Shown: positions 1,078 to 36,949, counted from the first letter of the stretch. The stretch is DNA of 64,000 bases from Lachnospiraceae bacterium UBA4348 (GCA_002394165.1 DGTA01000057.1:8477-72476), one strand, 5' to 3'. Made by a program: numbers and translations. Notes: generated from the sequence alone by a model not told the origin.

Positions 1078-1896
1078 ATGTCAGCTACATCAGACATCAT
1101 CAGAGAAAGAAAAAGTGTGCGCAGCTTCGACGGGACGCCGATCGGGGCTTCGGATCTGGCCAGGCTCAGGGAGTATGCTGAAAACATCACAGATCCTTTC
1201 GGGATTCCGGTTCGATTTGTGTTTCTGGACGCAGAAGAAAAGGGATTATCCAGCCCGGTCATCAGCGGTTAGAGCTGGTATGTAGCGGGGATCGTCCCCA
1301 AACAGCCGTACGCCGATGTGGCTTTCGGCTATTCCTTCGAGAAACTGGTCCTTTATGCCTGGTCGCTCGGAATTGGGACCACATGGATCGGCGGTACGAT
1401 GAAACGGGAAGGTTTCGAGAAGGCAGCCGGAGTGGGGGCAGGGGAGATGATGCCCTGTGTCAGCCCGCTCGGTTATCCCGCAAAGAAACGCTCTTTCAAG
1501 GAAAGCCTGATGCGTAAGGGTGTGGGAGCCGACAACCGTATGCCGGCTGAGAAACTCTTTTTCGATGAGACACTTGACCGGCCATTGGTCTCTCCCGCAA
1601 AGGATCTGATCAATGACCTGATCGAGATGGTCCGGTGGGCGCCTTCGGCGGTCAACAAGCAGCCGTGGCGGGTCGTCGTTCAGGACAGGAAGTATCATTT
1701 TTATGAGAAAAAAGACAAGGGCTATGTCAACGAGGCGACCGGCGACCTGCAGAAGATTGATGTGGGGATCGCACTCTGTCATTTCGTGATGGGTATCGAA
1801 GAACGGAACAATACCGCTGTTGTCACGGTATCCGATCCCGGGATCACCATCCCCGGAGACATGGAGTATATCGCAACCGTCAGCATGGGAGAGTAA
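1078..1896 (+). pseudogene. nitroreductase family gene interrupted by a single in-frame TAG (1270..1272)
   Basis: ORFs 1078..1272 and 1318..1896 are in the same frame. Reading through the TAG gives ...SSPVISG*SWYVAGIVPKQPYADVAFGYSFEKLV... Motifs RKSVRSF and WAPSAVNKQPWR are typical nitroreductase. Confidence 0.7.
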
Positions 1897-1899
1897 GGA

Positions 1900-2427
1900 A
1901 TGAGAAAAATACTGGTCGTGATCGACATGCAGAATGATTTTATCGACGGGGCGCTCGGCACGGAAGAGGCCGTCCGGATCGTCGGGGCCGTAAAAGAAAA
2001 GATCGGCACATATCCGCAGAATGATGTTTATGTGACAATGGATACCCACACGGAAGATTATATGAATACACAGGAAGGAAAATACCTTCCTGTGCCGCAT
2101 TGTATAAGAGGCACGCAGGGCTGGGAGATCCGTCCGGAGATCGAGGCCCTTTTAGGCAGTGCACACCGTTATGAGAAGCCGACTTTCGGCAGCACGGGCC
2201 TGGCCGCGGACCTGACCGTGCTCGCGGCGAAAGAAGAGATCGAGCTTGAACTGATCGGCCTGTGCACAGACATCTGTGTGGTATCGAATGCCCTGCTGCT
2301 CAAGGCCTTCATGCCGGAAGTGAAGATCACTGTCGATGCCTCCTGCTGCGCCGGCGTGACGCCTGAAAAGCACGAGGCTGCGCTCGAGACGATGCGCTCG
2401 TGCCAGATACAGATCACAGGAGTATGA
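1900..2427 (+). CDS. cysteine hydrolase / isochorismatase family (nicotinamidase-like)
   Basis: The MRKILVVIDMQNDFIDGALG start and the LIGLCTDICVVSNAL catalytic Cys motif are typical of the family. Confidence 0.85.
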   Translation: MRKILVVIDMQNDFIDGALGTEEAVRIVGAVKEKIGTYPQNDVYVTMDTHTEDYMNTQEGKYLPVPHCIRGTQGWEIRPEIEALLGSAHRYEKPTFGSTGLAADLTVLAAKEEIELELIGLCTDICVVSNALLLKAFMPEVKITVDASCCAGVTPEKHEAALETMRSCQIQITGV

Positions 2428-2434
2428 GGCCTTC

Positions 2435-2470
2435 TTCAACGCGTTAATGTACGAAAAGGGTCAGACCCCT
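2435..2470. repeat. family-A palindromic repeat, half-element (TTCAACGCGTTAATGTACGAAAAGGGTCAGACCCCT)
   Basis: Near-identical to 25985..26020 and related to the arms at 40388..40439 and 11708..11756. It lies between convergent genes and is followed by TTTATTTT. Confidence 0.8.
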
Positions 2471-3580
2471 TTATTTTATCACACATGAATAATAATCAAT
2501 GTTTTTAACATCACGTACTTCACCATCGTCGAAGACGATCCGGGAAACCCCGACCCATACGGTGTAGACAGAGGCGAGGTATCCCAGGTTGAAGGAGTCG
2601 CAGTAGACTGTCTCGCCCGGCCGGACGGTCTGTGTTTTGGTGGAGGTGTAGACCGGCGTATCGGCGACTCTTTCACCCCAGACATCGGTAGTATACAGGC
2701 TCAGCTCGTAGCCTCTGATCGTCCTTGTGGATGAAGTGTTGGTCACCTGCACTCTGAAGAAGAATGTGTTGACGGACGGCACGCCATCCCATTTGAAGCT
2801 TGAACCGATCACCAGCGGGATTTCCGGTTCTTTACGGGGATTGGCAAGCCCTGAAAATATCATATCCTGTGTGATTGCATCGGCCTCGGGACTCGATCCC
2901 AGGCCGTTTTGTTCGTTCAGTTCTTTCACTGCAGCGGCGGTCTTCGGGCCGTAAGAGCCGTCCGCCTTGTCCGCCAGATAGCCCAGGGCTATGAGCTTTT
3001 CCTGAAGTTTTTTAACATCCTCTCCCTTATCTCCCTGTCTGAGCACATGATAAACGGGTGCCGGCTCGGTCACGGGCTCGGTTTCCGGTTCCTCGATGTG
3101 ACGCCCGCCTTCGAGTTCTTTCAGGTCGACGGACGCTTTCTCCCGGTACAGCTCCTCTTCGGAATCTTTATCCTTGAGCACCAGTGTGACGTCGAGACGC
3201 CGGGCCGAGGAGAGAGCCGCCGTTCCGGCCTGGGCATTATCGCTCGAAGTGATGATCAGTGCGGAAGCGTCATCCTCATGATTCTCGTTTATCCCGGTAT
3301 CCGAGTGAGGCTTTGAGGATAAAAAACCGGTGCCGAGAACGCCGACCCCGTCCACGGTCAGGTCTTTGAACAGAAGGGATAGTTCTCTGTCGGTATCATT
3401 GATGATCCTGGCGTACAGGTACATATCGGCGTTGGTATTCTTGAACCGGAGGATCTCGTAGCCGGTCAGGTAAACGCTGTAGCCGTCATGGCTGAAAAAT
3501 GCCTCTTCAGCCATGGCCGATGAAGATACCATTCCCATCAACATAAAAAACAGCAGAAAGATGAGTGCTTTTTTCTTCAT
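2471..3580 (-). CDS. secreted protein with peptidoglycan-binding (PG_binding_1-like) domain
   Basis: Signal peptide MKKKALIFLLFFMLMGMVSSSAMA. The motif LRQGDKGEDVKKLQEKLIALGYLADKADGSYGPKTAAAVKEL is present. AAGGAGG lies upstream of the ATG. Confidence 0.8.
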   Translation of the reverse strand: MKKKALIFLLFFMLMGMVSSSAMAEEAFFSHDGYSVYLTGYEILRFKNTNADMYLYARIINDTDRELSLLFKDLTVDGVGVLGTGFLSSKPHSDTGINENHEDDASALIITSSDNAQAGTAALSSARRLDVTLVLKDKDSEEELYREKASVDLKELEGGRHIEEPETEPVTEPAPVYHVLRQGDKGEDVKKLQEKLIALGYLADKADGSYGPKTAAAVKELNEQNGLGSSPEADAITQDMIFSGLANPRKEPEIPLVIGSSFKWDGVPSVNTFFFRVQVTNTSSTRTIRGYELSLYTTDVWGERVADTPVYTSTKTQTVRPGETVYCDSFNLGYLASVYTVWVGVSRIVFDDGEVRDVKNIDYYSCVIK

Positions 3581-3613
3581 AATATGGGCACCTCCTTGGT
3601 GATGTTACGGGAT

Positions 3614-5071
3614 CTATGACAACAGCTTCAGCTCCCTGCTTTCTTCCAGCTGCGGATAAAGGGCGAGCTTGTACTTTCGCTGAAGTTCCACGCGGTTACG
3701 GCAGCCGGTCTTCTGCAGCACATTTCTTACGTGGTATTTCACTGTATTTTCAGAGATATAGAGTCTCGCCGCGATCTCGCCGTTTGTGTGATCTTCGATG
3801 ATCAGGCGCAGGAGTTCCCGCTCACGGGAGGACAGATCGTGGTGAAGACAAAAGGACTCGAACACCTCCTCCTCACTTCTTCGCTGCACCGCCTCGGGCT
3901 GATACAGCTGCTGATACAGACTGAACAGCAGCCAGACTGTGGGGATGAACAGGAGTACAGTGACGACGATCAGGGTGATATGACGGCCGGATAGTGACAA
4001 ATAGAGAATGCTGCCGGCTGCGTCCCCGACTCTTCCCATAAGAAGTCCAAGCAGAGCCAGCTCCGGTCGGTGTGTTTTCCGGGCGATGTCCAGAAAAAGC
4101 ACGACCCGGAACACGGTAAAAAAGCTGAAAAGTACGTAGCCTAGACCCCACAGGATCACGCCGGGGACCGGCTCGCTGACGATGCTCAGCATGAGGAAGG
4201 GAGAGGAGAGCGCGGCAACGGTGCAGATAAGGCCGCTTTTTCTGTTCCGGTCATTGATCAGCCCGGCCACGGCAAGGCCGAGCGCGTACGGGATACGGGA
4301 AAGCATGGGATCCAGCCCGGCCGCAATATCAGAGGAAGGAAAACCATATCCTAGATTTTTGACGAGGCTCGCCAGAACAACCGTGCCGCAGGCCAGTGCC
4401 AGTGTTTTCGTTGACAGCTGCATGACATGGCGCGGAGAAGAGGGATCCGGCACAGATGACGCGGGTCCCTCTTTGGCGGGATGGATCAGGCCGAGCCGGC
4501 GCGTCATGAAATACAGCGCCAGCCCCAGGATCAGAAAGAACAGGGCCGCCCGAGAACCGCTTGTCAGGCGGTCGATCCCCGGAAGGGCCAGTATGCCGAC
4601 AATGACCGTCGCGAGGGCATAGCCTCCGCCAAAGACCAGACTTTTATGAGACTTTCTGCCGCTTTCATCCATCTCCTGCCCGTTGATGCCGCCGATCACA
4701 TAAAGATATACACCGGCGATGACGCCGCAGGTCACATTCATTAAGAGCCCAAAGACGGCGCAGGCTGCTGGATGTGTACCGAGCAGGGAGGGGATCAGGA
4801 AAGCGCAGAACAGTAAGAGAGAGTAATTAAAAACGGCACGGCAGGATTCACCCTCATCTTTATGGAGCCGGCGGCTGACAAATCCCAGGCCGGCCGCCTG
4901 GCAGAGATATCCGGCTACCAGACTGAGCCAGTCCGTGGCAGCAGCCCCTGTCATAAACACCATGCGGCGGATCCAGAAGAGATAAGCCGCGGAAGTGAGC
5001 CCGAAGCAAAGTGCCACCCAGAGCGCAGCACGTATCTCCGGTATCATAATAAAACGGCGGATTTGTCTCAT
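3614..5071 (-). CDS. polytopic membrane protein with C-terminal LuxR-type HTH (membrane-anchored LuxR family regulator)
   Basis: About 10 hydrophobic segments are followed by LSSRERELLRLIIEDHTNGEIAARLYISENTVKYHVRNVLQKTG. The start could be the internal Met (MIPEIR). Confidence 0.8.
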   Translation of the reverse strand: MRQIRRFIMIPEIRAALWVALCFGLTSAAYLFWIRRMVFMTGAAATDWLSLVAGYLCQAAGLGFVSRRLHKDEGESCRAVFNYSLLLFCAFLIPSLLGTHPAACAVFGLLMNVTCGVIAGVYLYVIGGINGQEMDESGRKSHKSLVFGGGYALATVIVGILALPGIDRLTSGSRAALFFLILGLALYFMTRRLGLIHPAKEGPASSVPDPSSPRHVMQLSTKTLALACGTVVLASLVKNLGYGFPSSDIAAGLDPMLSRIPYALGLAVAGLINDRNRKSGLICTVAALSSPFLMLSIVSEPVPGVILWGLGYVLFSFFTVFRVVLFLDIARKTHRPELALLGLLMGRVGDAAGSILYLSLSGRHITLIVVTVLLFIPTVWLLFSLYQQLYQPEAVQRRSEEEVFESFCLHHDLSSRERELLRLIIEDHTNGEIAARLYISENTVKYHVRNVLQKTGCRNRVELQRKYKLALYPQLEESRELKLLS

Positions 5072-5371
5072 GATAAGCGGCCCTTTCCTCAGAACAATAC
5101 ATGATCTTCAAGTACTCATCCTGCTTAGAAAAATTATAACAGACCCTGCAGGCGCCCTCAATATTCGGCTGCCTCAAACAAAGTCCAGACAGCGCATAAA
5201 AACGTGTCCTACCCCAAAACCACCCTGCCGAAAAATGCGATCGGAGATCTTTTGGAGGCACTTTCTATTGTCGCTCAGGTGAGGTTTCACATATAATAAA
5301 CCTATATTAATTTAAAAATATCCACGAAAAGAAACCGGACGAAACACAGTGTAAGAGAGGAGGATCAAATC

Positions 5372-6988
5372 ATGAAGCGACTTGCAGCAGTACTGGCAGC
5401 GGCTTGCCTGTTCCTGGTTCCTGTCCATGCCGGGCAGGCATCCACTTTTGATTATGTGAAGGGCATGACAGGTGAAAACACTACCTATATGTTTAATGAC
5501 CTGATGCTTATTCTTCCGGCTGACTGGGATGGAAAGATCACGGTAGAGACAAAGGAGCAGGGAGTCTATTTTTATCAGAGTGAGAGCTATGAGAGATATA
5601 TGGAAGACGGAATGCCCGGCGGCGGCTTCCTCTGTTCACTCTCGGCCAGCAAAGATGACAGCTATACCAGCCTGCCGTCATACCGGTTCCTCGGTATTTC
5701 CGATATTTCCGGGCTGCATTACTACCTCAGCCTTCCGTCGGATTATCCGGCCTACATGGAAGGCGATATCCCGGCCGAATACGACCGGATGCTTGAGCAG
5801 GTCGACTATATTGTGGAAAATGTGAAATTCTTCTCGGAAGGCCCCGGCCTTTCCGGACATGAGTCCGGCAGCACCTTCCCCGATGCGGCGGAGGCAGGTC
5901 CTTCAGGCGGCGAGGAAGGAGCCGCGGATGATCCTCAGATCAGTTCAGATCCGGTGACAGCCGCCTGGACACCGCAGGAGGTCCGCAATGAATTCGAGCA
6001 CTCCATGATTCCCAGATATTTCTTTGAAAGCCCGGATTCCATGCTGGACGGGATCGACGAGGTGGGTATTTACTGGCTGTGGGAATCGGTCTGCGGCGAA
6101 AATGGTGTTGACCCTTATTATCCTAAGGAGAATTATATCGAGCACTGGTATCCGGCGAACGAAAACGGTACCTTCGTGCAGATCGAGCTTCCGGATCCGG
6201 AAGCCAATCTGCTCTGCTACCGGATCTATCTGATCTACGATCCTTCCACAGGACAGACAGCATATTACACGGCAGAATATGATAACCTCCTGGGAGACGC
6301 ATGTTTCCTGTGTTCCTGGGACGAGGACCGGACGCACAGCCTCCTCGATGAGCTGGAGATCCTTGACCGGACAGCCGATGATTACAATGAAAAACTCCGG
6401 GCTGAGGCGGAGAAGGTCGCACAGGCGGCGGGCGTCGCCCTCGGATGGCCGGTCGAGGACGGATCCATCCATGCCGAGGGAGATGAAGGAACCGAGGCCG
6501 GTTCCGATACCATCGTCACGGTGGACGGTGATGATATTGATGAGGATCTTGAGGTGATCTCCTGCCCGGAGCAGGAATTCAGCTTCAAGGCTGATCCTTC
6601 CTATATCTGGGACTACAATGACGGAACGGGCATCACCGTCTATACCGAGGGCGAGAAACGAATCCCCTATATTATCGTTTACCGGGCCGAGGACCTGATC
6701 GTCGAAGCCTATGAATATATCACGGAACAGTTCACGCCTCATATGCAGCAGCAGTATGGGGATAATCTTGTTGAATACACAGAATATGAAGCCTATGAAA
6801 TCGGCGGGAAGCAGCTGCCCGCCGGCCTGTACAAATATAATGTCGAAGGAACTCTTGTTGATCTTCTGCGCATCTATGACTCGACAGGGTCGCAGACGGT
6901 GGCTTACACGGCCAAATACATCGACGGCCAGGGAGAGGCTGAGCTCAAAGCGCTCGATACCGCGGTGAGGACATTCACCGAAGAATGA
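5372..6988 (+). CDS. secreted hypothetical protein (acidic, 538 aa)
   Basis: Signal peptide MKRLAAVLAAACLFLVPVHA. AGAGGAGG RBS. Coding-like composition. No family recognised. Confidence 0.7.
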   Translation: MKRLAAVLAAACLFLVPVHAGQASTFDYVKGMTGENTTYMFNDLMLILPADWDGKITVETKEQGVYFYQSESYERYMEDGMPGGGFLCSLSASKDDSYTSLPSYRFLGISDISGLHYYLSLPSDYPAYMEGDIPAEYDRMLEQVDYIVENVKFFSEGPGLSGHESGSTFPDAAEAGPSGGEEGAADDPQISSDPVTAAWTPQEVRNEFEHSMIPRYFFESPDSMLDGIDEVGIYWLWESVCGENGVDPYYPKENYIEHWYPANENGTFVQIELPDPEANLLCYRIYLIYDPSTGQTAYYTAEYDNLLGDACFLCSWDEDRTHSLLDELEILDRTADDYNEKLRAEAEKVAQAAGVALGWPVEDGSIHAEGDEGTEAGSDTIVTVDGDDIDEDLEVISCPEQEFSFKADPSYIWDYNDGTGITVYTEGEKRIPYIIVYRAEDLIVEAYEYITEQFTPHMQQQYGDNLVEYTEYEAYEIGGKQLPAGLYKYNVEGTLVDLLRIYDSTGSQTVAYTAKYIDGQGEAELKALDTAVRTFTEE

Positions 6989-7025
6989 AAACATGACAGG
7001 GGGGCCGGTTCGGCGTCAATATAAC

Positions 7026-7116
7026 AGAATCTGACAGGGGACGATTCTGTGTCAGCGGCTGCTGACACAGAACCGTCCCCTTGTCAGATTCAGAACCATC
7101 CCCTGCTCTTGTCAGG
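7026..7116. repeat. family-B palindromic repeat cluster (three CTGACA..GGGGACG..TGTCAG units)
   Basis: 7028..7056 and 7061..7091 form a roughly 30-bp-arm inverted repeat (1 indel, 1 mismatch) around the loop GGCT. A third degenerate unit is at 7089..7116. Related to 56713..56762. Confidence 0.8.
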
Positions 7117-7180
7117 CCCCGGAAGCTGTGATATAAGGAATCTGGAACCCTGATATATAAGAGAGTGGGAGTGATTGATC

Positions 7181-9013
7181 ATGAGAAGAAAACTGGCGTT
7201 CTTATTATCGGCGGCACTGACATTTGCCATGATCCCTGGAACAGCGGCGGGTGAAGCCCTGCCGGCGGAAGCACCGGTTCAGGCGGGAGCATCGGACCAG
7301 ACAGAGGCGCTGGATCCGGAGGAGGCGCAGACGGAGGCCGGGGAGGTCTCTGTTTCCATGGAAATGTATACTTACTATATGGAAGAGTACGACAATAATT
7401 TCGAAATGCCCGTATATTTTGTGAACGGCGTGAAAGATCTGCCGTTCGTGGATCTGGCGGACTGGTCGGATGTGATGGTGACGCTCTACCATTATTGCGG
7501 TTATGTGGATTATGCCCTGAATATGGATATAGACGGCGAGCTGGCAATGTATACCAGGGAGAACGGCTACTCCATGTTTTTTAATTTTGCGGAAGGAACC
7601 ATTGTCTTTGACGATTATGACGCGTTTACACATACGGCGGAGGACAAAGCCCTGCTGGATATGGTAAGCATGCCTCTTTATAATGAGGAGGGCGACAAGG
7701 TCGTCATGGAACGGCTCGAGCAGGGATCATTTGACCGCTATGGCAGTGAGATCACGCTGAACCTGAATGATTATGGTATTCCCATGTGCTGGGTCGAGGA
7801 GGAAAACCTGTATCTGGTCCCGATGCAGACGCTGGGGGATTTCCTGATCGCGGGGCCGCTCGGAGTGGATGTCTTTTTCAATGAGGCGGCGGTTTTCCTG
7901 GCCACCGAATCCGATTTCGGGATCGATGTCGAGGAGTATACCCCGCTTGGGGAAGAATTCTATTCGGCTCCCTACGGAACCATGAGCCCGGAGCTTGCGG
8001 CGTACAATTACAGTGAGCTGTGCCTGGCCCTGGATCATCTGTACGGGCTTAAGGAGATTCACGATATCACCAACTTTGACAAGATCTTCCAGGAGACCGG
8101 CTATGCGCATGATCTGTCCGATCCGGATCCCAACGTGTCGGATGGGGCGCTGGCGGACTTTATCGAGTACTACCTGGACGACCTGCATTCCTCCTTTGAG
8201 TTCCCGTCCTACCGGACACAGAAGGTGGAGGCTATCGGGGGGAGCGGGCTATCCTCCATGCAGGATGAGATCAACAGCAGGATCTTTTCGGAGGCCCGGA
8301 AGGCAGCGGACGGCGAGATCACCCCGTATCAGGAAGTGGGAAACACCGCCTATATCACGTTCGATAATTTCTCGTACCGAAGGAATCCTTCCGAGTATTA
8401 CGAAGAGGGAGCGGTCCCGGACCCGGGGACGGATCCCGCTTCTGAAGAGATGGATACGATCGGGCTGATGCTGTATGCGCACCAGCAGATCACGAGGCAG
8501 GACAGCCCCATCGAAAATGTGGTCATCGACGTGAGCCTGAATGGAGGCGGAAATCTTGATGCCTGCGCGTTTACGGCTTCCTGGCTTCTGGGGGAAGCAT
8601 CCCTGAGCATCCGCAGTTCCATGACGGGAGCAACATCGACGGGGGTATACCGGGTGGATGCCAACCTGGACGGGAGCTTTGATGAGAACGACACGATCTC
8701 TGACAAAAACCTGTACTGCCTGATCGGACCGTACAGCTTTTCAGCCGGCAACCTGCTCCCGAACGTCCTCAAGTCCTCCAGCAAGGTGACACTGCTCGGA
8801 CAGACATCCGGCGGCGGAAGCTGCTCGGTGCTTCATATGTCGACGGCATCCGGCGCGATCTTCAATATATCCTCACCCTACAGGATGTCCAGCGTAAAGA
8901 ACGGATCCTACTATGATATCGATCTGGGCATCGAGCCGGACTGCTACATAACAAAACTCGAGAATTTCTACGACAGGCAGGCCCTGACGGATTACATCAA
9001 CCAGCTGTTCTGA
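7181..9013 (+). CDS. S41 family (tail-specific-like) secreted peptidase
   Basis: Signal peptide. The C-terminal block CLIGPYSFSAGNLLPNVLK...TLLGQTSGGGSC resembles the S41 Ser/Lys catalytic region. ATG at 7181 follows GGGAG. Confidence 0.7.
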   Translation: MRRKLAFLLSAALTFAMIPGTAAGEALPAEAPVQAGASDQTEALDPEEAQTEAGEVSVSMEMYTYYMEEYDNNFEMPVYFVNGVKDLPFVDLADWSDVMVTLYHYCGYVDYALNMDIDGELAMYTRENGYSMFFNFAEGTIVFDDYDAFTHTAEDKALLDMVSMPLYNEEGDKVVMERLEQGSFDRYGSEITLNLNDYGIPMCWVEEENLYLVPMQTLGDFLIAGPLGVDVFFNEAAVFLATESDFGIDVEEYTPLGEEFYSAPYGTMSPELAAYNYSELCLALDHLYGLKEIHDITNFDKIFQETGYAHDLSDPDPNVSDGALADFIEYYLDDLHSSFEFPSYRTQKVEAIGGSGLSSMQDEINSRIFSEARKAADGEITPYQEVGNTAYITFDNFSYRRNPSEYYEEGAVPDPGTDPASEEMDTIGLMLYAHQQITRQDSPIENVVIDVSLNGGGNLDACAFTASWLLGEASLSIRSSMTGATSTGVYRVDANLDGSFDENDTISDKNLYCLIGPYSFSAGNLLPNVLKSSSKVTLLGQTSGGGSCSVLHMSTASGAIFNISSPYRMSSVKNGSYYDIDLGIEPDCYITKLENFYDRQALTDYINQLF

Positions 9014-9051
9014 TGACCGGGAAAAGGGCGCCTAAAAGGATGGAAAGCTGA

Positions 9052-9798
9052 ATGGAGTTCGATCAGACGCAGACCAGGATGTACTCGATCATCTGCAGCC
9101 ACGACGGGATCAAAGCCCGTGATATCGCCGCCCGGATCGGGGCGGACAAAACACAGATCAACCGGATGCTGTACAATGCGCCGTTTATCCATGAGCTGTG
9201 CTACCGGGATAAGGATTATCTCTGGCACGGCCTCATCCGCCAGACATTCCCTCACACGGGGCTGGCCGATTTCTGCGGCTATTACGCGTCGGTGGAACGA
9301 TTCCGGGAGCAGGACGGTGAGGAGTGGCTCGAGGAATTAAAGGCCGGCTGCCGCGGCATCGGCCGGAATCTGAACGATACGCGCGGACTGATCCATTCTT
9401 TCAGGGATTCGCGGGAGGTCATGCTCGGACTTTTCGAGGATATGGACGAGCTGGATACATCTTCGTGGGAGATCTGTTTTGAGCTGCGGATCAGGCGCGC
9501 CAGGCATATCCGGATCTACGCGGATGTGCTGGTGATAACTGAAAATAAAGTTTTTTCGCTGGAATTTAAGATGAAGGACGTGATCGACCCGGATGAAGAG
9601 CTGCAGGCCGTCAAGTATGCGCGGTATCTCGACGTCATCTTCGGGCCTGGCTATGAGGTGATCCCCGCGCTGGTGCTGACCAGGGCGGAGGATCTTTACA
9701 CATGGAGCGAGCTGCCCGGGAGCACGGCGCAGATTCCGGTCTGCTCGGGGGATATGCTTTTTAATCTGTTTGATGAGTATATCGGGTTCCTTAACTGA
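9052..9798 (+). CDS. winged-helix-like N-domain plus NERD/PD-(D/E)xK-like nuclease domain protein
   Basis: The N-terminus IICSHDGIKARDIAARIGADKTQINRMLY looks wHTH-like. The C-part IRIYADVLVITENKVFSLEFKMKD...LQAVKYARYL fits the D...E-x-K pattern of NERD-type nucleases. Confidence 0.6.
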   Translation: MEFDQTQTRMYSIICSHDGIKARDIAARIGADKTQINRMLYNAPFIHELCYRDKDYLWHGLIRQTFPHTGLADFCGYYASVERFREQDGEEWLEELKAGCRGIGRNLNDTRGLIHSFRDSREVMLGLFEDMDELDTSSWEICFELRIRRARHIRIYADVLVITENKVFSLEFKMKDVIDPDEELQAVKYARYLDVIFGPGYEVIPALVLTRAEDLYTWSELPGSTAQIPVCSGDMLFNLFDEYIGFLN

Positions 9799-11179: not shown

Positions 11180-11770
11180 ATGAAATGGATGATCGCGTCC
11201 GATCTTCACGGATCGGCTTACTACTGCCGGAAAATGCTGGAAGCCTTTGAACGGGAGAAGGCAGACCGGCTGCTTTTTCTTGGAGATATTCTCTACCACG
11301 GCCCGCGAAACGATCTGCCGCGGGATTACGCCCCGAAGGAAGTCATCCGGATGATGAATTCCCTCTCAGACCGGATCCTGGCCGTGCGGGGCAACTGCGA
11401 GGCCGAGGTGGACCAGATGGTCCTGGACTTCCCGGTCCTCGCTTCCTACGCCGTTCTGGAGCTGGGCGCCGGCACGGGCAGCAGCGGCAGCATCATATAC
11501 GCCACCCACGGCCATGTCTGGAACATTGACAACCTGCCGCCTCTTAAAAAAGGCGACATCCTGCTGTACGGACATACGCACGTGCCGCTTTGCGAAGAAA
11601 AAGACGGGATACATTGCCTGAACCCGGGGTCCGTGTCACTGCCCAAAGAAGGCAGCGAACACAGCTATATGACGCTCGAAAACGGCGTATTTTCCTGGGT
11701 TTCTTTTGAGGGGTCTGACCCTTTTCGCACGTTGAAGTGCAAAAGTTTTGAGGGGGAGGAGATAAGGTGA
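11180..11770 (+). CDS. YfcE/MJ0936-type metallophosphoesterase; the 3' end runs into a family-A repeat
   Basis: MKWMIASDLHGS...LGDILYHGPRN...VRGNCE...THGH...YGHTH. ATG at 11180 follows GGAGG. The last roughly 20 codons (EGSDPFRTLKCKSFEGEEIR) are encoded by the repeat. Confidence 0.85.
   Translation: MKWMIASDLHGSAYYCRKMLEAFEREKADRLLFLGDILYHGPRNDLPRDYAPKEVIRMMNSLSDRILAVRGNCEAEVDQMVLDFPVLASYAVLELGAGTGSSGSIIYATHGHVWNIDNLPPLKKGDILLYGHTHVPLCEEKDGIHCLNPGSVSLPKEGSEHSYMTLENGVFSWVSFEGSDPFRTLKCKSFEGEEIR
11708..11756. repeat. family-A palindromic repeat, degenerate full element
   Basis: GAGGGGTCTGACCCTTTTCGCAC-GTTGAA-GTGCAAAAG..TTTTGAGGGGG. The left arm matches 40388..40410, the loop is the reverse complement of the 40411..40416 loop, and the right arm is partly deleted. 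Confidence 0.7.
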
Positions 11771-11781
11771 ACGGGAACAGT

Positions 11782-12510
11782 ATGCTGGAGATCCGCCATT
11801 ACTCGAAATCCTACGGCGGAGGGAAGAAGGCGGCGGATGATGTGTCCCTGACCGTGGAATGCGGGGATATCTGCGGCTTTATCGGCCACAACGGCGCCGG
11901 CAAGTCGACGACGATCCGTGCTGTGGTGGGCGTCCTGGATTTTACGGAGGGCGAGATTTTTATCGGCGGGCATTCGGTGAAGGATGAACCGATGGAATGC
12001 AAGAAGATCACGGCGTATATTCCGGACAATCCGGATCTTTACGAGAACCTGACGGGCATCCAGTACCTGAATTTTATCGCGGATGTTTTTGAGCTTGGGG
12101 CCGCCGAGCGGGAGGAGCGCATCAGAAAGTACGGGGATCTGTTTGAGATCACGCGGGATCTGGGCGACCTGATCAGCTCCTATTCCCACGGGATGAAGCA
12201 GAAGGTGGCGATCATCTCCGCGCTGATCCATGAGCCGAAGCTTCTTGTGCTGGATGAGCCTTTTGTGGGCCTCGATCCGAAGGCGTCCTTTACACTGAAG
12301 GAGATCATGCATGAAATGTGTGATCGGGGGACGGCGGTCTTCTTTTCAACTCATGTGCTCGATGTGGCGGAGAAGCTGTGCAACAAGGTGGCAATCATAA
12401 AGCACGGCAGGATCATTTTTTCCGGGACCATGGAAGAACTGACGGAAGGCCAGTCACTGGAAGAGGCATTTCTGGAGGCGGATCATGAAGAAATACAGCA
12501 TTCTTCTTAA
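11782..12510 (+). CDS. ABC transporter ATP-binding protein
   Basis: Walker A GHNGAGKST, signature SHGMKQKV, Walker B LLVLDEP. Confidence 0.9.
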   Translation: MLEIRHYSKSYGGGKKAADDVSLTVECGDICGFIGHNGAGKSTTIRAVVGVLDFTEGEIFIGGHSVKDEPMECKKITAYIPDNPDLYENLTGIQYLNFIADVFELGAAEREERIRKYGDLFEITRDLGDLISSYSHGMKQKVAIISALIHEPKLLVLDEPFVGLDPKASFTLKEIMHEMCDRGTAVFFSTHVLDVAEKLCNKVAIIKHGRIIFSGTMEELTEGQSLEEAFLEADHEEIQHSS

Positions 12511-14074
12511 GACGATGCTCCTGTCCTCCAGCCTGGGGAATATCCGCAGGCACACGTATGACAGGAAAAAGAAAAGAAAGATCATCGGAAGCCGCATCGG
12601 TCTTACGCTCCTGTGCGCGATGCTCATTGCCTACAGCATCCTGATCTGTGTCGGCTTCGGAAAGATCGGGATGACCGGTGCGGTCCCGGTGATGTGTGCC
12701 CTGGTGATCAGCTCGCTCGCTTTTGTATTCACCTTTTTGAAGTCCAACGGATATCTGTTCAACTTTAAGGAATACGACATGCTGATGGCGCTCCCGTTTA
12801 AGACGAGGACCGTCGCCGCCTGCAAGTTCCTGTATATGTATATCAAGAGCCTGCCATGGTACCTGAGCATCTCCGCTGCCATGCTGGCCGGATATGCGTA
12901 CTATGCTCGGCCGCCCTTCTATACCTATATCATATGGATCATCCTGTCCCTGATCCTGCCGGTGATCCCGATGCTGGCGGCGTCATTTATCGGATTTCTG
13001 ATCGCGAAGATCAGCTCGGGATTTAAGAAGACCAACCTGATCCAGACGATCTTTACCTTCGTGATCATCGTCCTGAGCTTCAGCCTGCGCTACATTATAG
13101 AGGCGCTGATCGGAGACGATAAGATAGAAGCGGTTTTAAGCGGCATTTCGATGATGACAGGCCGGGCTTCGGGGATCTACTTTCCGGCCGGGTGGTTTGC
13201 CGCTGCGGTCACCAGGACGGATATTCCGAAGATGCTGGCACTGACCGGACTTAGCTTCGCGTTATTCGCAGCGGTGTTTTACATCGTCGGAAACTCCTAC
13301 AGGCAGATCAACTCCGCGATCAGGTCCCATGCCGCGTCGAAGAACTACCGGATGAGAAGACAGAAGAAGAGCAGTGTGGTCAATGCGATCGCCTTCAAGG
13401 AATTCAAGAGGCTGACCGGATCCACCGTGTACATGACGAACGCTGCGGTCGGCGAGCTTCTGGCCGCCCTGCTGGGGATCATCACCCTTGTTCTCGGCTT
13501 TGACAGGATCATCGCGATCATCACGCAGGGGGCGCCCATCGACCCGGCCATACTCCAACCGGCCATCCCCTTTGTCGTGTACTTCTTTGTCGGCATGGTG
13601 GCGACCACGGCATGCTCCCCGTCGCTGGAGGGAAAGAACTACTGGATCCTGCAGAGCCTGCCGATCGAAAAAAAGACGATCCGCCAGGGAAAAATGTTGT
13701 TTAATATGTACCTTACAGTTCCCTTTATGCTGTTTGCCGTACTTTGTATGTGTCTGTCATTCAAAGTTCCACTCCTCAACACGGTGCTGTACCTGATCCT
13801 GGGAGTCGCGCTGTGCGCCTTCTCCACAGCCTGGGGCTGCGTTTGCGGAGTCTGGCATATGCGCACAGACTGGGAGAACGAGGTGGAAGTGATCAAGCAG
13901 GGTGCGGCGGTCGTCATCTACATGCTGCCCAACATGCTTGCTGCGATGGGGCTGGTCGTGCTGATGGTGTGGCTTGGCACAAAGATGGATCATACGCTGC
14001 TGACAGTCATCGCAATCGGGATCGCCGGGCTGCTGGCGGGAGTGTGCTACAAGATCGCGATCCGGCTCCGCTGA
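12485..14074 (+). CDS. large polytopic ABC exporter permease-like protein (529 aa)
   Basis: Overlaps the ATPase gene by 26 nt. It has 10 or more hydrophobic helices. Family assignment (putative ABC exporter type) is from memory only. Confidence 0.7.
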   Translation: MKKYSILLKTMLLSSSLGNIRRHTYDRKKKRKIIGSRIGLTLLCAMLIAYSILICVGFGKIGMTGAVPVMCALVISSLAFVFTFLKSNGYLFNFKEYDMLMALPFKTRTVAACKFLYMYIKSLPWYLSISAAMLAGYAYYARPPFYTYIIWIILSLILPVIPMLAASFIGFLIAKISSGFKKTNLIQTIFTFVIIVLSFSLRYIIEALIGDDKIEAVLSGISMMTGRASGIYFPAGWFAAAVTRTDIPKMLALTGLSFALFAAVFYIVGNSYRQINSAIRSHAASKNYRMRRQKKSSVVNAIAFKEFKRLTGSTVYMTNAAVGELLAALLGIITLVLGFDRIIAIITQGAPIDPAILQPAIPFVVYFFVGMVATTACSPSLEGKNYWILQSLPIEKKTIRQGKMLFNMYLTVPFMLFAVLCMCLSFKVPLLNTVLYLILGVALCAFSTAWGCVCGVWHMRTDWENEVEVIKQGAAVVIYMLPNMLAAMGLVVLMVWLGTKMDHTLLTVIAIGIAGLLAGVCYKIAIRLR

Positions 14075-14166
14075 CATAGAAAAGGCCTGCAAAATATTCT
14101 TGCGAACGCGCGGAGGATATGTTATGTTATTCCCAGTATATTTCTAGAAAGAAAGGGGAATACCTG

Positions 14167-14334
14167 ATGAGAAAAGAATATGAAGCTCCGAAGGCAGAGA
14201 AACTTGATTTTGATTATTCAGAAGTCGTAACAGCCAGCAATACGGGTACGGGCTGCATGATCGCCGGTATGACCACAACATATTCGGATGGAAGCGGCAA
14301 CACTTATCAGACATCTGTTCCCGGCGACGAATAA
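14167..14334 (+). CDS. candidate RiPP precursor peptide (55 aa)
   Basis: MRKEYEAPKAEKLDFDYSEVVTAS / NTGTGCMIAGMTTTYSDGSGNTYQTSVPGDE. The N-half is charged and leader-like; the C-half is Gly/Thr/Ser-rich with one Cys. AAGGGG RBS. It lies directly upstream of the rSAM/SPASM gene. Confidence 0.6.
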   Translation: MRKEYEAPKAEKLDFDYSEVVTASNTGTGCMIAGMTTTYSDGSGNTYQTSVPGDE

Positions 14335-14350
14335 AGAGAAATTGTAAAAA

Positions 14351-14377
14351 GCGCCTCGTTTTCGAGGCGTTTTTTTG
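14351..14377 (+). terminator. intrinsic terminator/attenuator between precursor and maturase
   Basis: GCGCCTCG-TTTT-CGAGGCG followed by TTTTTTT, 17 nt after the precursor stop. Confidence 0.65.
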
Positions 14378-14400
14378 ATTTGACGGAGGTCGTGTTCAAG

Positions 14401-15549
14401 ATGAAGGAGCCGAAAAATGGCTTTGAATACCTGAAAAGAAGGCATGAGCAGGAACTGGGGAAAAACGTCCGTTTTTCCGGATTCAAACGGTACCTGGAAG
14501 TGAAGGCCCGTGAAAAGGGAACCCCTGTCAGCGGCCAGTTTGAACTGACGCCGCTCTGCAATTTCGACTGCAGGATGTGTTACGTCCACCTCCGGAAAGA
14601 CCAGCTTAAAACGCAGGATGTCATGACGGCGGATCAGTGGAAGCAGCTGATCAGGCAGGCCTGGGAGATGGGCCTGATCAGGGCGACCCTGACAGGGGGT
14701 GAGTGCCTGGCGTACCCCGGGTTTAAAGAGATCTATCTGTATCTGCACAGCCTCGGCTGCGAGGTCGTGGCGCTGACGAACGGTTTTTTGATCGATGACG
14801 ACTGGATCCGCTTTTTCAGGGAGCATCCGCCGGCGCAGATCCGGATCACCCTCTACGGATACGATGACGATACTTATGAAAATGTGACGGGTCGAAGATG
14901 CTTTGACCGGATCCGCGCGAATATCCTGAAGCTGAAGGATGCGGGGATGCCGCTGACGATCTCGGTGACGCCCAACCGCTTTCTCGGGGAGGGAGTCTTT
15001 GAGACGATCCGCACGGCCAAAAGCCTGTGCCAAAGCGTCCTGATCAGCAATACGCTGTTTGCCCCGAGGCAGGAGACCGGACGGGCGCAGGAAGGGCATA
15101 AGATCAGCGATGAAGATTACCTTCGGATGTACACGCTGATAAATGAGCTGGACGGAAAGGAGACGGTCCCGATCCCCAAAGACGAGCTGCCGCCGGCGGG
15201 CGGTCCTTCCCATGAGTGCAGGGAATGCGGGGTCGAGTGCGGCGCCGGACGATCGGGCTTCAGTATAGACTGGAAGGGAACCATGCGTCCCTGCACCCGG
15301 TTTTATGCGATCGAGGCGTTTCCGCTGCGGGACGGATTTGAAAAAGCCTGGCGGGAAATGAACCGGGTGGCCGCTTCCTGGCCGCGGGTCGCCGAATGTG
15401 AGGGCTGCGCCTACGCCACGGCCTGCATCAGGTGTCCGGCCAATATGCTTGCCTATGCCGAAGCGGGAGTACAGCCGGTTAAAATGTGTGAGAGGACAAT
15501 GTTTTTCGTGGAAAACGGGGTCTGGAACATCCCGGAATGCGATGACTGA
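14401..15549 (+). CDS. radical SAM enzyme with C-terminal SPASM domain (peptide maturase-like)
   Basis: CNFDCRMC (CxxxCxxC) and a GGECLAYPGF GGE motif. C-terminal Cys clusters are CRECGVECGAGRSGFSIDWKGTMRPC (Gx4C) and CEGCAYATACIRC. Confidence 0.85.
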   Translation: MKEPKNGFEYLKRRHEQELGKNVRFSGFKRYLEVKAREKGTPVSGQFELTPLCNFDCRMCYVHLRKDQLKTQDVMTADQWKQLIRQAWEMGLIRATLTGGECLAYPGFKEIYLYLHSLGCEVVALTNGFLIDDDWIRFFREHPPAQIRITLYGYDDDTYENVTGRRCFDRIRANILKLKDAGMPLTISVTPNRFLGEGVFETIRTAKSLCQSVLISNTLFAPRQETGRAQEGHKISDEDYLRMYTLINELDGKETVPIPKDELPPAGGPSHECRECGVECGAGRSGFSIDWKGTMRPCTRFYAIEAFPLRDGFEKAWREMNRVAASWPRVAECEGCAYATACIRCPANMLAYAEAGVQPVKMCERTMFFVENGVWNIPECDD

Positions 15550-15606
15550 AGAAAAGCCCGGGAGGGCAGTTTGCGAACGATTGATGTTTCGGACGAGGAC
15601 ATTTGA

Positions 15607-16821
15607 ATGAATACAGACGAGAAAAAACAATTATATAAGATCCTGATCATCCTCGGCGCCGTGGCGGTGCTGCTCAGCGTGATCCTCACGGTGTTCTTCC
15701 GGACGGATCTTGTGATGAAGCTGATCGGCCGGGCCATGACTGTCCTGGAGCCGTTTTTCTGGGGAATTGCGATCGCTTATATCCTGCATCCGATCAGCGC
15801 ATCCATCGGGCGCTTCCTGACAAAGATCGAGCGAAAGATCAGTAAAAAGCAAAGGCCCGGCCTGATCAGGACGATCAGCGTCCTGGGCGCCATCATTTTT
15901 ATGTTCGCGGTCATCACCCTGCTTCTTCTGGCACTGCTTCCCGAGCTGATCTCCAGCATCAGCAGCCTGATCAGTCAGCTGCCCGGTGCGCTGCGAAGCT
16001 TTGAGGAGTGGGTCAGCTCTCTCGACCACGGCGGGACCTCGCATGAGGTGGTCACCACTATCCAGGCGGCGGTCGACACGCTGGGCGACAAGCTGCAGAA
16101 TTACCTGCAGACCGATGTGCTGCCCAACTTGGAGACACTGGTCACCAACGTGACGAGCAGCTTCATGGGCCTCCTTTCCGTGGTGAAGAATATCGGCCTC
16201 GGATGCATCATCTCCGCCTATATCATGGGCAGCTGGGAAAAATTCATCGCACAGGCGGGCATGATCGTCTACGCGCTCTTCCCGAAAAAAACAGCCGACT
16301 GGATCCGCCGGGAAGCGAAGTTCACCGACCGGATGTTCAGCGGTTTTATCCACGGGAAGGTATTCGATTCACTGATCGTGGGCCTGATCTGCTTTGTCTT
16401 CTGTATGATCACAAAAATGCCGTACGCACTGCTTGTCAGCGTTATTGTGGGTGTGACGAACATCATCCCGTTTTTCGGGCCTTACCTGGGAGCCATTCCC
16501 TCCGCTCTGCTGATCCTGACCGTCTCGCCGGTCAAATGCCTGATCTTTGTTGTCTTCATCATTCTGCTCCAGCAGTTTGACGGAAACTACCTCGGACCGG
16601 CTATCCTGGGCGACCGTCTGGGCATCTCCGGGATCTGGATCCTGTTTTCCATCCTGGTCTTCAGCTCCCTGTGGGGGATCCTTGGCATGCTGATCGGAGT
16701 GCCGGTGTTCGCGGTGATTTATGACCTGATCAGCAGCCTTGTCGCTGCCGGGCTCAGAAAGCGCGGGCAGGAAAAGCGCCTGGCCAGATATGAAGATACA
16801 TTCCACAGCGAAAAAAAGTAA
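15607..16821 (+). CDS. AI-2E family (PerM/YhhT-like) transporter
   Basis: Eight-TM-like profile. The conserved C-part NIIPFFGPYLGAIP...LLQQFDGNYLGPAILG is present. Confidence 0.85.
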   Translation: MNTDEKKQLYKILIILGAVAVLLSVILTVFFRTDLVMKLIGRAMTVLEPFFWGIAIAYILHPISASIGRFLTKIERKISKKQRPGLIRTISVLGAIIFMFAVITLLLLALLPELISSISSLISQLPGALRSFEEWVSSLDHGGTSHEVVTTIQAAVDTLGDKLQNYLQTDVLPNLETLVTNVTSSFMGLLSVVKNIGLGCIISAYIMGSWEKFIAQAGMIVYALFPKKTADWIRREAKFTDRMFSGFIHGKVFDSLIVGLICFVFCMITKMPYALLVSVIVGVTNIIPFFGPYLGAIPSALLILTVSPVKCLIFVVFIILLQQFDGNYLGPAILGDRLGISGIWILFSILVFSSLWGILGMLIGVPVFAVIYDLISSLVAAGLRKRGQEKRLARYEDTFHSEKK

Positions 16822-17707: not shown

Positions 17708-18007
17708 TTACTCTGTTACAAGATAGTTGGCGTTCACATAGCCTCTTCCATTGGTTTTGGGTGAATATACCCACACATAAGGATTTCCGTCCCGGCCGAC
17801 GGTATTGCCGCCTTCGATAAAGACGTAATCTCCGTTGAAGAGCTCGTGGCCGCGCTGCTCATTGCCGTGGTCATAATTAGGCTGGGTGCGCAGTGCCAGG
17901 TAGCCGGTTTTGAGGTTGGCTACTTTTCTCCTGTAGATGTTGCCGGTGGCATTACCGCCGCTTACGCCGGCAAGTTCTTCTTCGTTGATTTTATTGAGAT
18001 CGGTCAT
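17708..18007 (-). CDS. double-glycine (bacteriocin-type) leader fused to an SH3-like domain, paralog 1
   Basis: MTDLNKINEEELAGVSGG|NATGNIY... Hydrophobic residues at -4, -7, -12 and -15 fit the GG-leader pattern. The core GYLALRTQP...GDYVFIEG...YVWVYSPKTNGRGYVNANYL looks like bacterial SH3. GGAGG RBS. Confidence 0.75.
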   Translation of the reverse strand: MTDLNKINEEELAGVSGGNATGNIYRRKVANLKTGYLALRTQPNYDHGNEQRGHELFNGDYVFIEGGNTVGRDGNPYVWVYSPKTNGRGYVNANYLVTE

Positions 18008-36876: not shown

Positions 36877-36949
36877 ACGTTTCACAGGATAATTGATTAT
36901 TGAAAGGGAGAGACACAGCCGGGGCAGCCCGAAGCTGTGCAGACGACCT

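Follow-up and report, generated by a model that had tools for sequence, protein, structure and literature searches.

A short open reading frame (ORF) and a gene for a radical S-adenosylmethionine (SAM) enzyme follow each other on one strand of a 64,000-nucleotide (nt) stretch of DNA from Lachnospiraceae bacterium UBA4348 (GCA_002394165.1, DGTA01000057.1:8477-72476; the whole stretch is called the window below, and positions are counted from its first letter). Do these two genes form a biosynthetic unit, and what would that unit make? A sequence-only reading had interpreted them as the precursor and the radical SAM/SPASM maturase of a RiPP, a peptide that ribosomes make and that is modified after translation. 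Comparison with homologous loci supports this interpretation, and it is very probable that positions 14153-15549 constitute a two-gene RiPP module, in which a SPASM radical SAM enzyme modifies the core of its precursor. The observations that carry this conclusion are the anatomy of the two genes, their family membership and the co-occurrence of peptide and enzyme. Small and intact, the module is a minimal representative of a radical SAM RiPP family that is very large and apparently uncharacterised. Its features are as follows:

14153..14159, + strand: precursor ribosome-binding site (RBS) AAGGGGA, read from the sequence, 7 nt 5' of the ATG at 14167
14167..14238, + strand: precursor leader, residues 1-24, MRKEYEAPKAEKLDFDYSEVVTAS, delimited by alignments A1/A2/A4 and the leader hidden Markov model (HMM)
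14239..14334, + strand: precursor core, residues 25-55, NTGTGCMIAGMTTTYSDGSGNTYQTSVPGDE, with the stop codon, delimited by the core subfamily and the leader-end alignment
14346..14376, + strand: intrinsic terminator or attenuator hairpin, CGCCTCG-TTTT-CGAGGCG followed by T7, from fold energy and a terminator scan
14385..14389, + strand: maturase RBS GGAGG, read from the sequence, 11 nt 5' of the ATG at 14401
14401..15549, + strand: radical SAM/SPASM maturase, 382 amino acids (aa), from PF04055, homologues and a structural model
14557-14580, + strand: maturase CxxxCxxC, Cys53/57/60, as CNFDCRMC, residues 53-60
15217-15489, + strand: maturase SPASM Cys region, C273-C363, from a 42-homologue alignment

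The ORF at 14167-14334 encodes a 55-aa product, MRKEYEAPKAEKLDFDYSEVVTASNTGTGCMIAGMTTTYSDGSGNTYQTSVPGDE, and possesses its own RBS, in keeping with the precursor-like character first attributed to it. A 71-aa reading from the ATG at 14119 was rejected because the homologues begin at MKK/MRK, the N-terminal extension not being conserved among them. The peptide has no match at E 0.01 to any NCBIfam or Pfam model, and is recovered by the leader HMM at E 3.5e-14. The leaders of the family conform to the consensus MKKxYETPxAEKxEFDYxExVVAS (Y..P.AEK.EF.Y...V.AS), in which Y5 and P8 do not vary, while F15, Y17 and S24 are conserved in at least 90% of the sequences in alignments A1/A2/A4. The combination of these near-invariant leaders with cores that are hypervariable across the family is a classic RiPP signature. 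A leader/core boundary after ...VVTAS had been proposed from the sequence, and agrees with the occurrence of one core type (GNGDVGRGRGRGGGCDG...) behind both a window-type leader and a double-glycine leader; the GG of the latter aligns with the AS of the former, which places the end of the leader after Ser24. In loci L060, L095, L102, L104 and L105 the core type GNGDVGRGRGRGGGCDGVPYHRNARTFSSGRNSGC is joined to three leader types, one of them double-glycine (YGSPELEKLALEDEDLERVSGG), showing that routes of export or processing have exchanged leaders.

The maturase gene starts at the ATG at 14401, which leaves the 67 nt from the peptide stop that had been described earlier. A longer ORF call, from the TTG at 14380, was discarded: it overlaps the RBS, and the length of the homologues (381-382 aa) fits a start at 14401. 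Both the CxxxCxxC cluster and the C-terminal SPASM-type Cys arrangement named in the sequence-only reading are present. The latter takes the form HECRECGVECGAGRSG...GTMRPC...CEGCAYATACIRC...MC, with C-x17-(GTMRPC) spacing, and follows the seven-Cys pattern of the SPASM motif (C-x9-17-G-x4-C...C-x2-C-x5-C-x2/3-C...C). Throughout the alignment of 42 homologues there is no change in the three Cys of the radical SAM cluster or in the seven of the SPASM motif (C280, C298, C333, C336, C342, C345 and C363), and the window enzyme retains 66/66 invariant columns, these Cys included. The position of an eighth Cys, upstream of C280, varies between C273 and C276, and in homologues such as L007, L008 and L012 this residue is variable or missing (missing in L007). 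The thioether-forming enzyme CteB has an open coordination site on auxiliary cluster I, and the variability of the eighth Cys would be compatible, as weak evidence, with a similar site in the present family.

At the level of curated models, the only Pfam domain detected in the maturase is PF04055 (82.2 bits against a cutoff of 29.5); a match to the SPASM model PF13186 is precomputed for one homologue, P0017. NCBIfam family calls were judged against the curated bit-score cutoffs, and the enzyme reaches none of them. Its top match is ScmF, with 58.1 bits against 400, and the other scores are 55.8 against 300 for SkfB, 55.6 against 500 for AhbD, 52.7 against 325 for MoaA, 48.2 against 381 for PqqE, 42.6 against 850 for AlbA, 41.5 against 340 for PapB and 34.6 against 349 for the anaerobic sulfatase-maturating enzyme (anSME, TIGR03942). 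The cutoffs of the sactipeptide, ranthipeptide (SCIFF/PapB) and anSME families are thus all missed. An AlphaFold model of the maturase (predicted local distance difference test, pLDDT, 88.9; predicted template modelling score, pTM, 0.86) can be superposed along its whole length on SuiB, anSME, PqqE and SkfB, all of them SPASM/twitch enzymes. These are also its closest folds in the PDB, with SkfB the best, at template modelling (TM) scores of 0.5-0.6 and 14-20% identity, and the epimerase EpeE is found among the fold matches as well. SkfB is likewise the best PDB sequence match (E 1.8e-16). Just two helices lie ahead of the barrel in the model, indicating that the maturase has no built-in RiPP recognition element (RRE). 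With respect to the RRE expected of RiPP maturases, none is seen in the enzyme model and no PqqD gene is present within the 64 kb window.

The association of the two genes was investigated across loci from genomes and metagenomes. Sixteen genome loci (L001-L016) have an enzyme that is at least 35% identical; their sources are metagenome-assembled genomes (MAGs) of Porcincola, Blautia, Lachnospiraceae, Oscillospiraceae and further Clostridia. In 16/16 of them a small leader-bearing ORF, detected by the leader HMM or a motif scan, directly adjoins the enzyme gene on the same strand, either upstream or downstream of it. Among the metagenome loci the leader HMM finds a match in 58/80 and divergent leaders occur in 8 more, giving 66/80, with the remainder being mostly contigs with little flanking sequence. 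The pair is kept together while the surrounding genes change entirely from locus to locus, and the pairing of peptide and enzyme is not due to chance. The conserved small ORF in homologous loci, whose absence the sequence-only reading had named as evidence against its interpretation, is thereby established, and the enzyme likewise does not classify with the sulfatase or cofactor maturases that it had named to the same end.

A search with the peptide by itself yielded three relatives, with leaders identical in type and different cores. The peptide profile recovers 227 clusters in a 90% database and 1050 representatives among 1.84 billion proteins clustered at 50%, and more than 2255 enzyme homologues were found, most of them 381-382 aa long and about 55% identical. 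The family extends over Lachnospiraceae, Blautia, Oscillospiraceae and further rumen, pig and human-gut Clostridia. The closest relative is in a rumen Porcincola MAG (Porcincola sp. ruminal MAG_190, L006), with an enzyme that is 82% identical and a peptide, MKKEYEAPKAEKLEFAYSEVVTAS-GQGSGLPCILGSSVSWQDAAGNQYRQEYPGDE, that also has one Cys. 

A sister family (L017-L040, e.g. L020 6120-6374) comprises maturases that are 30-35% identical, encoded in loci where an HPr-kinase-like gene overlaps on the upstream side and a small gene for PqqD follows downstream. The precursors of this family begin with MKKxYxKPxxYFExFELxxxIA..., contain about four Cys and end in a conserved ...YCY...(F/I)NS. A full-text literature search, thin on subscription papers, found no paper on either family, though a mention in a genome-mining atlas is possible. 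The window pair belongs to a family that is very large and apparently unstudied, and whose modified peptides are made by Clostridia of the gut and rumen.

Directly after the precursor stop, between the two genes, lies a G+C-rich stem-loop (14352-14369) bordered by A5 and T7, which the sequence-only reading had not noted. The segment 14346-14376 has a folding free energy of -20.9 kcal/mol (z -4.3; equal stability in 0/200 shuffles) and was also recovered by the terminator scan. A hairpin followed by a U-tract occurs at the same position in L001, L006, L007, L010 and L052, with stems that differ in sequence. Its presence in five further loci with unrelated stems supports a conserved attenuator that sets how much peptide there is relative to enzyme. 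In sboA-alb, too, a terminator separates precursor and maturase. The promoter TTGCGA-N17-TATGTT (14100..14128) that had been suggested ahead of the precursor was discarded as evidence: it matches 8/12 consensus positions, and the promoter scan shows no enrichment over shuffles (5 sites in the region against 4.8 expected).

These features suggest the following mode of action. The precursor would be translated from its own RBS, with a leaky terminator keeping its transcript in excess over that of the enzyme. The 24-residue leader, with its Y-x-x-P-x-A-E-K-L-x-F-x-Y-x-x-x-V-x-A-S pattern, would serve for recognition, whereas the 31-residue core would be the part that is modified. The SPASM domain of the 382-aa enzyme is predicted to hold two auxiliary Fe-S clusters. 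On binding the leader the enzyme would split SAM to a 5'-deoxyadenosyl radical, which may then take a hydrogen from a core residue, allowing the sulfur of Cys30 to be joined to the carbon of a downstream residue and a single macrocycle to form. The leader would subsequently be cut off after Ser24 and the peptide exported. Cys30, specified by the codon at 14254-14256, is the sole Cys of the core, and a thioether at this residue is the most likely product, though we would place it no higher than an even chance. In its manner of working the module would resemble the sactipeptide and ranthipeptide systems, in having a leader-guided SPASM radical SAM enzyme and a Cys-bearing core.

Many related loci are considerably richer. 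The full cassette encodes a PF14907 nucleotidyltransferase, the enzyme, one or two peptides, a signal-peptidase-I-like protein (151-174 aa with GxSMxP; TIGR02228 at 41.5 bits, sub-threshold), an ABC exporter of the MsbA/bacteriocin type and a fusion of an HPr-kinase-like domain to PqqD (361-402 aa). Such cassettes are found at L003, L015, L046, L047, L049, L052, L053, L094, L119-L131 and others, and, among related loci whose neighbouring genes were inspected, several (L001, L003, L046, L047 and L049) are situated inside exopolysaccharide/glycosyltransferase regions. A review of RiPP leader proteases makes no mention of signal peptidase or S26 enzymes. The accessory genes that mark the full cassette, the PF14907 nucleotidyltransferase and ABC exporter among them, are all missing from the 64 kb window, where searches for PqqD, S26-like peptidase and HPr-kinase-like genes with phmmer and purpose-built HMMs gave nothing better than E ~1. 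The window locus is a stripped-down copy of this cassette, so that the missing functions must come from other parts of the genome or from housekeeping proteins, unless they are dispensed with altogether.

How does the pair relate to characterised RiPP systems? The sactipeptide/ranthipeptide-type architecture originally assigned to it survives as a generic resemblance, but the enzyme lacks an RRE and scores far under the cutoffs of all sactipeptide and ranthipeptide models. Sactipeptide synthases (SkfB, AlbA, and the thuricin and ruminococcin C maturases) share with the window pair the SPASM-type auxiliary clusters, a neighbouring leader peptide and a likely Cys donor. However, the window enzyme is only about 20% identical to them, in the core barrel alone, falls below the SkfB and AlbA cutoffs and lacks the N-terminal RRE. 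The window leader family is unrelated to theirs, and sactipeptides have an N-terminal Cys ladder, whereas the window family usually has two Cys 12-16 residues apart. The ranthipeptide enzymes (SCIFF/CteB, PapB/freyrasin) are SPASM thioether formers abundant in Clostridia, and the window enzyme likewise has a seven-Cys SPASM domain. The PapB model aligns with residues 56-352 of the window enzyme, yet with the low score given above, and the window core is not Cys-rich, has no CxxD-type repeats and is paired with an enzyme devoid of an RRE. As the precursor has no NCBIfam or Pfam match at E 0.01, the SCIFF precursor model TIGR03973 is not matched; the 'ranthipeptides' of the Hungate1000 paper are SCIFF peptides defined by TIGR03973, and hence a different family from that of the window.

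Two further systems show partial likeness. In the SynChlorMet cassette (ScmC, ScmD, ScmE, ScmF; HprK_rel_A), ScmF is the top NCBIfam match of the window enzyme, and the HPr-kinase-like::PqqD fusion of the related full cassettes weakly matches ScmC, ScmD and HprK_rel_A; those full cassettes also contain a PF14907 nucleotidyltransferase. All these matches are far below cutoff (58 against 400, 22 against 125 and 22 against 100), and no ScmC- or ScmD-like gene was found in the 64 kb window. The full-text literature search gave no paper on the SynChlorMet cassette, which is itself uncharacterised. The resemblance to lasso peptide systems lies in the leader, which has an invariant Y-x-x-P near its N-terminus, and in the PqqD domains of the related cassettes, which best match lasso_PqqD models; a YxxP leader motif is bound by the B1 proteins of lasso systems. 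In contrast to these systems, the modifying enzyme of the window pair is a radical SAM protein, and neither a lasso cyclase (Asn-synthase-like) nor a B2 (transglutaminase-like) protease appears in the Pfam listings of the window and eight related loci, which were not followed by a targeted search.

The nature of the modification can be approached through the distribution of Cys in the cores. Counts were taken over 262 unique cores, and Cys fraction and spacing over the first 127 of these. At least one Cys is present in 260/262 cores: 2 cores have none, 28 have one, 183 have two, 26 have three, 19 have four and 4 have five. Cys makes up 6.6% of core residues, and in two-Cys cores the spacing is mostly 12-16 residues. 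The single-Cys core, which had been regarded as unusual, is therefore a minority state, but its 28 representatives show that it is no exception within the family. Depending on the core subfamily, it is the first or the second Cys that has been lost, while the remaining motif is kept (e.g. SCSGGIYRMFVENYTNCHEKETEVW versus NGHKYRKYVDNYAGCRETATDEW). Such losses are easier to reconcile with independent Cys-to-carbon links than with a single obligatory disulfide.

Several considerations nevertheless weigh against the picture of a thioether-forming module as drawn above. The thioether is deduced just from the enrichment in Cys and from distant fold relatives. The SPASM model PF13186 does not attain E 0.01 on the window protein in the Pfam scan, and with no RRE and no accessory genes nearby the pair might be less active than the full cassettes. 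The core subfamily of the window, C-[MIA]-[IV]-x-G-x4-[YW]-x-[DN]...[CY]...G-[DN]-[ED], which it has in common with L006, L001, L007, P0216/L052, P0372/L049 and L053, conserves Gly, an aromatic residue, Asp/Asn and a C-terminal G-D-E rather than Cys; seven listed members have 2, 2, 2, 2, 1, 1 and 0 Cys. The Cys-free member, P0372 (L049 6001-6174; NGGQQKIPGIEGSVVEYDDMGGTHHSQTYGGDE), is encoded in a full cassette. Together with the conserved non-Cys positions, it implies that the target of modification could be another residue.

It is accordingly a tenable, if less probable, alternative that the RiPP module is real but that the enzyme installs a C-C, C-O or C-N cross-link on a conserved aromatic residue (Tyr39), or an epimerisation, with Cys acting as a disulfide partner or metal ligand or being irrelevant. 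The stricter conservation of G-x4-[YW]-x-[DN] and of the terminal G-D-E within the window subfamily points in this direction, as does the occurrence of P0372 in an intact cassette. SuiB, which forms a Lys-Trp link, and PqqE, which forms a Glu-Tyr link, are as near to the maturase in fold as SkfB, with EpeE also in range, and in several other core subfamilies a Trp is located 2-4 residues past the first Cys. On the other side, a residue found in nearly every core and at such frequency is hard to explain if irrelevant, and the independent loss of either Cys runs contrary to an obligatory disulfide. P0372 may moreover be the substrate of another enzyme or a decaying copy, because it is the second peptide of the L049 cassette, which additionally encodes a two-Cys peptide and two radical SAM enzymes.

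A different doubt concerns whether the window pair functions by itself. It might be a satellite or relic cut off from the genes of a full cassette, relying on a cassette elsewhere or making no mature product. The lack of accessory genes in the window and of an RRE in the enzyme is consistent with this, and so is the coexistence of loci within single genomes: one contig of a MAG (JAFXZS010000008.1) carries both the full cassette L004 and the minimal pair L011, and the MAG of the closest relative has two loci, L006 and L008. However, both window genes are intact, with good RBSs and every invariant enzyme column kept, and two Porcincola-like species share the pair, their enzymes being 82% identical and the core diverged but still in-frame. 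Furthermore, minimal pairs recur beside unrelated neighbours at L008, L011 and L012, suggesting either that nothing beyond the two genes is needed or that such pairs are normally helped in trans. We therefore consider a defunct or dependent satellite rather unlikely, and the intact two-gene module remains the preferred reading.

The genes on either side of the module code for transporters, and the sequence-only reading, which called them exporters, implied that they belong to the locus:

11767-12510, + strand: ABC-2 transporter ATPase, DrrA-like/lantibiotic-protection-like (NCBIfam/Pfam)
12485-14074, + strand: 529-aa ABC-2 permease with 12 transmembrane segments (PF16949/PF09847)
15607..16821, + strand: AI-2E family transporter (PF01594, 167 bits)

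All three are present and share the strand of the pair, but they are not its conserved partners, and adjacency is consequently the sole evidence for their membership in the locus. A role as functional parts of the locus, in export and/or self-immunity, would accord with the close spacing, the permease stop lying 93 nt 5' of the peptide start and the AI-2E start 58 nt past the enzyme stop, and with the affinity of the ATPase to DrrA and lantibiotic-protection proteins; an AI-2E gene is also found downstream of the pair in the Porcincola locus L006. Homologues of the ABC-2 ATPase and permease, on the other hand, accompany the pair in no other species' locus examined, and the full cassettes carry a different exporter, the MsbA/bacteriocin-type ABC protein. 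The start of the ATPase gene overlaps the stop of an upstream yfcE-type phosphodiesterase gene, a housekeeping gene, indicating that the ATPase belongs to the upstream operon. In L006 the AI-2E gene lies 7.7 kb downstream, separated from the enzyme gene by three unrelated inserted genes; it is absent from all other loci, and the neighbours of other minimal pairs are unrelated. Participation of these transporters is hence improbable. The L006 insert (1545-9268) looks like a defence-type island; its products are a 763-aa TIR-TPR protein, a protein of 621 aa that lacks any clear domain and a 1157-aa Ser/Thr kinase-WD40 protein.

Two other genes of the window were also inspected. The ABC gene at 36893-39748 (+) was considered as a C39 peptidase exporter and rejected, as ABC_tran and FtsX domains were found instead; its product is a 951-aa MacB-like fusion of an ABC ATPase to an FtsX-type permease. 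The 64 kb window yielded no ABC exporter with a C39 peptidase. A 99-aa ORF at 17708-18007 (-) has a double-glycine leader, MTDLNKINEEELAGVSGG, and a body of about 80 aa, matches the Pfam model Bacteriocin_IIc with just 16 bits, and is followed by a strong 14-bp terminator (17702-17671). This ORF may encode a bacteriocin-like protein that is secreted and has no connection with the radical SAM pair.

Finally, that the radical SAM protein is an anSME, a heme, molybdopterin or other cofactor enzyme accompanied by a spurious small ORF is effectively refuted: its weak core-domain similarity to the AhbD, MoaA, NirJ and anSME models amounts to scores 5- to 10-fold under the curated cutoffs, and the small ORF, with homologues in more than 1000 clusters, stands beside the enzyme, on either side, in essentially every locus.

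Radical SAM-modified peptides of gut anaerobes include antibiotics, e.g. ruminococcin C, as well as signalling peptides. The present family comprises over 1000 distinct clusters of precursors and over 2000 of enzymes, and no curated model describes it. More speculatively, the window leader family and the sister family (MKKxYxKP...FEL) could together represent a new RiPP class, with an RRE-less SPASM enzyme, an undescribed cross-link (e.g. from Cys or an aromatic residue to an unusual acceptor) and a leader recognition of its own in the two-gene loci, and with full cassettes, often in exopolysaccharide loci, that add a signal-peptidase-I-type protease and tailoring by HPr-kinase-like and nucleotidyltransferase proteins; we regard this as a tentative possibility. 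The unusual set of cassette proteins, namely the S26-type peptidase, the HPr-kinase-like::PqqD fusion and the PF14907 protein, raises questions as to how the leader is removed, what tailoring takes place and what biological role the products play. The window pair, with one 55-aa peptide bearing one Cys and one enzyme, offers the simplest entry to the chemistry of the family.

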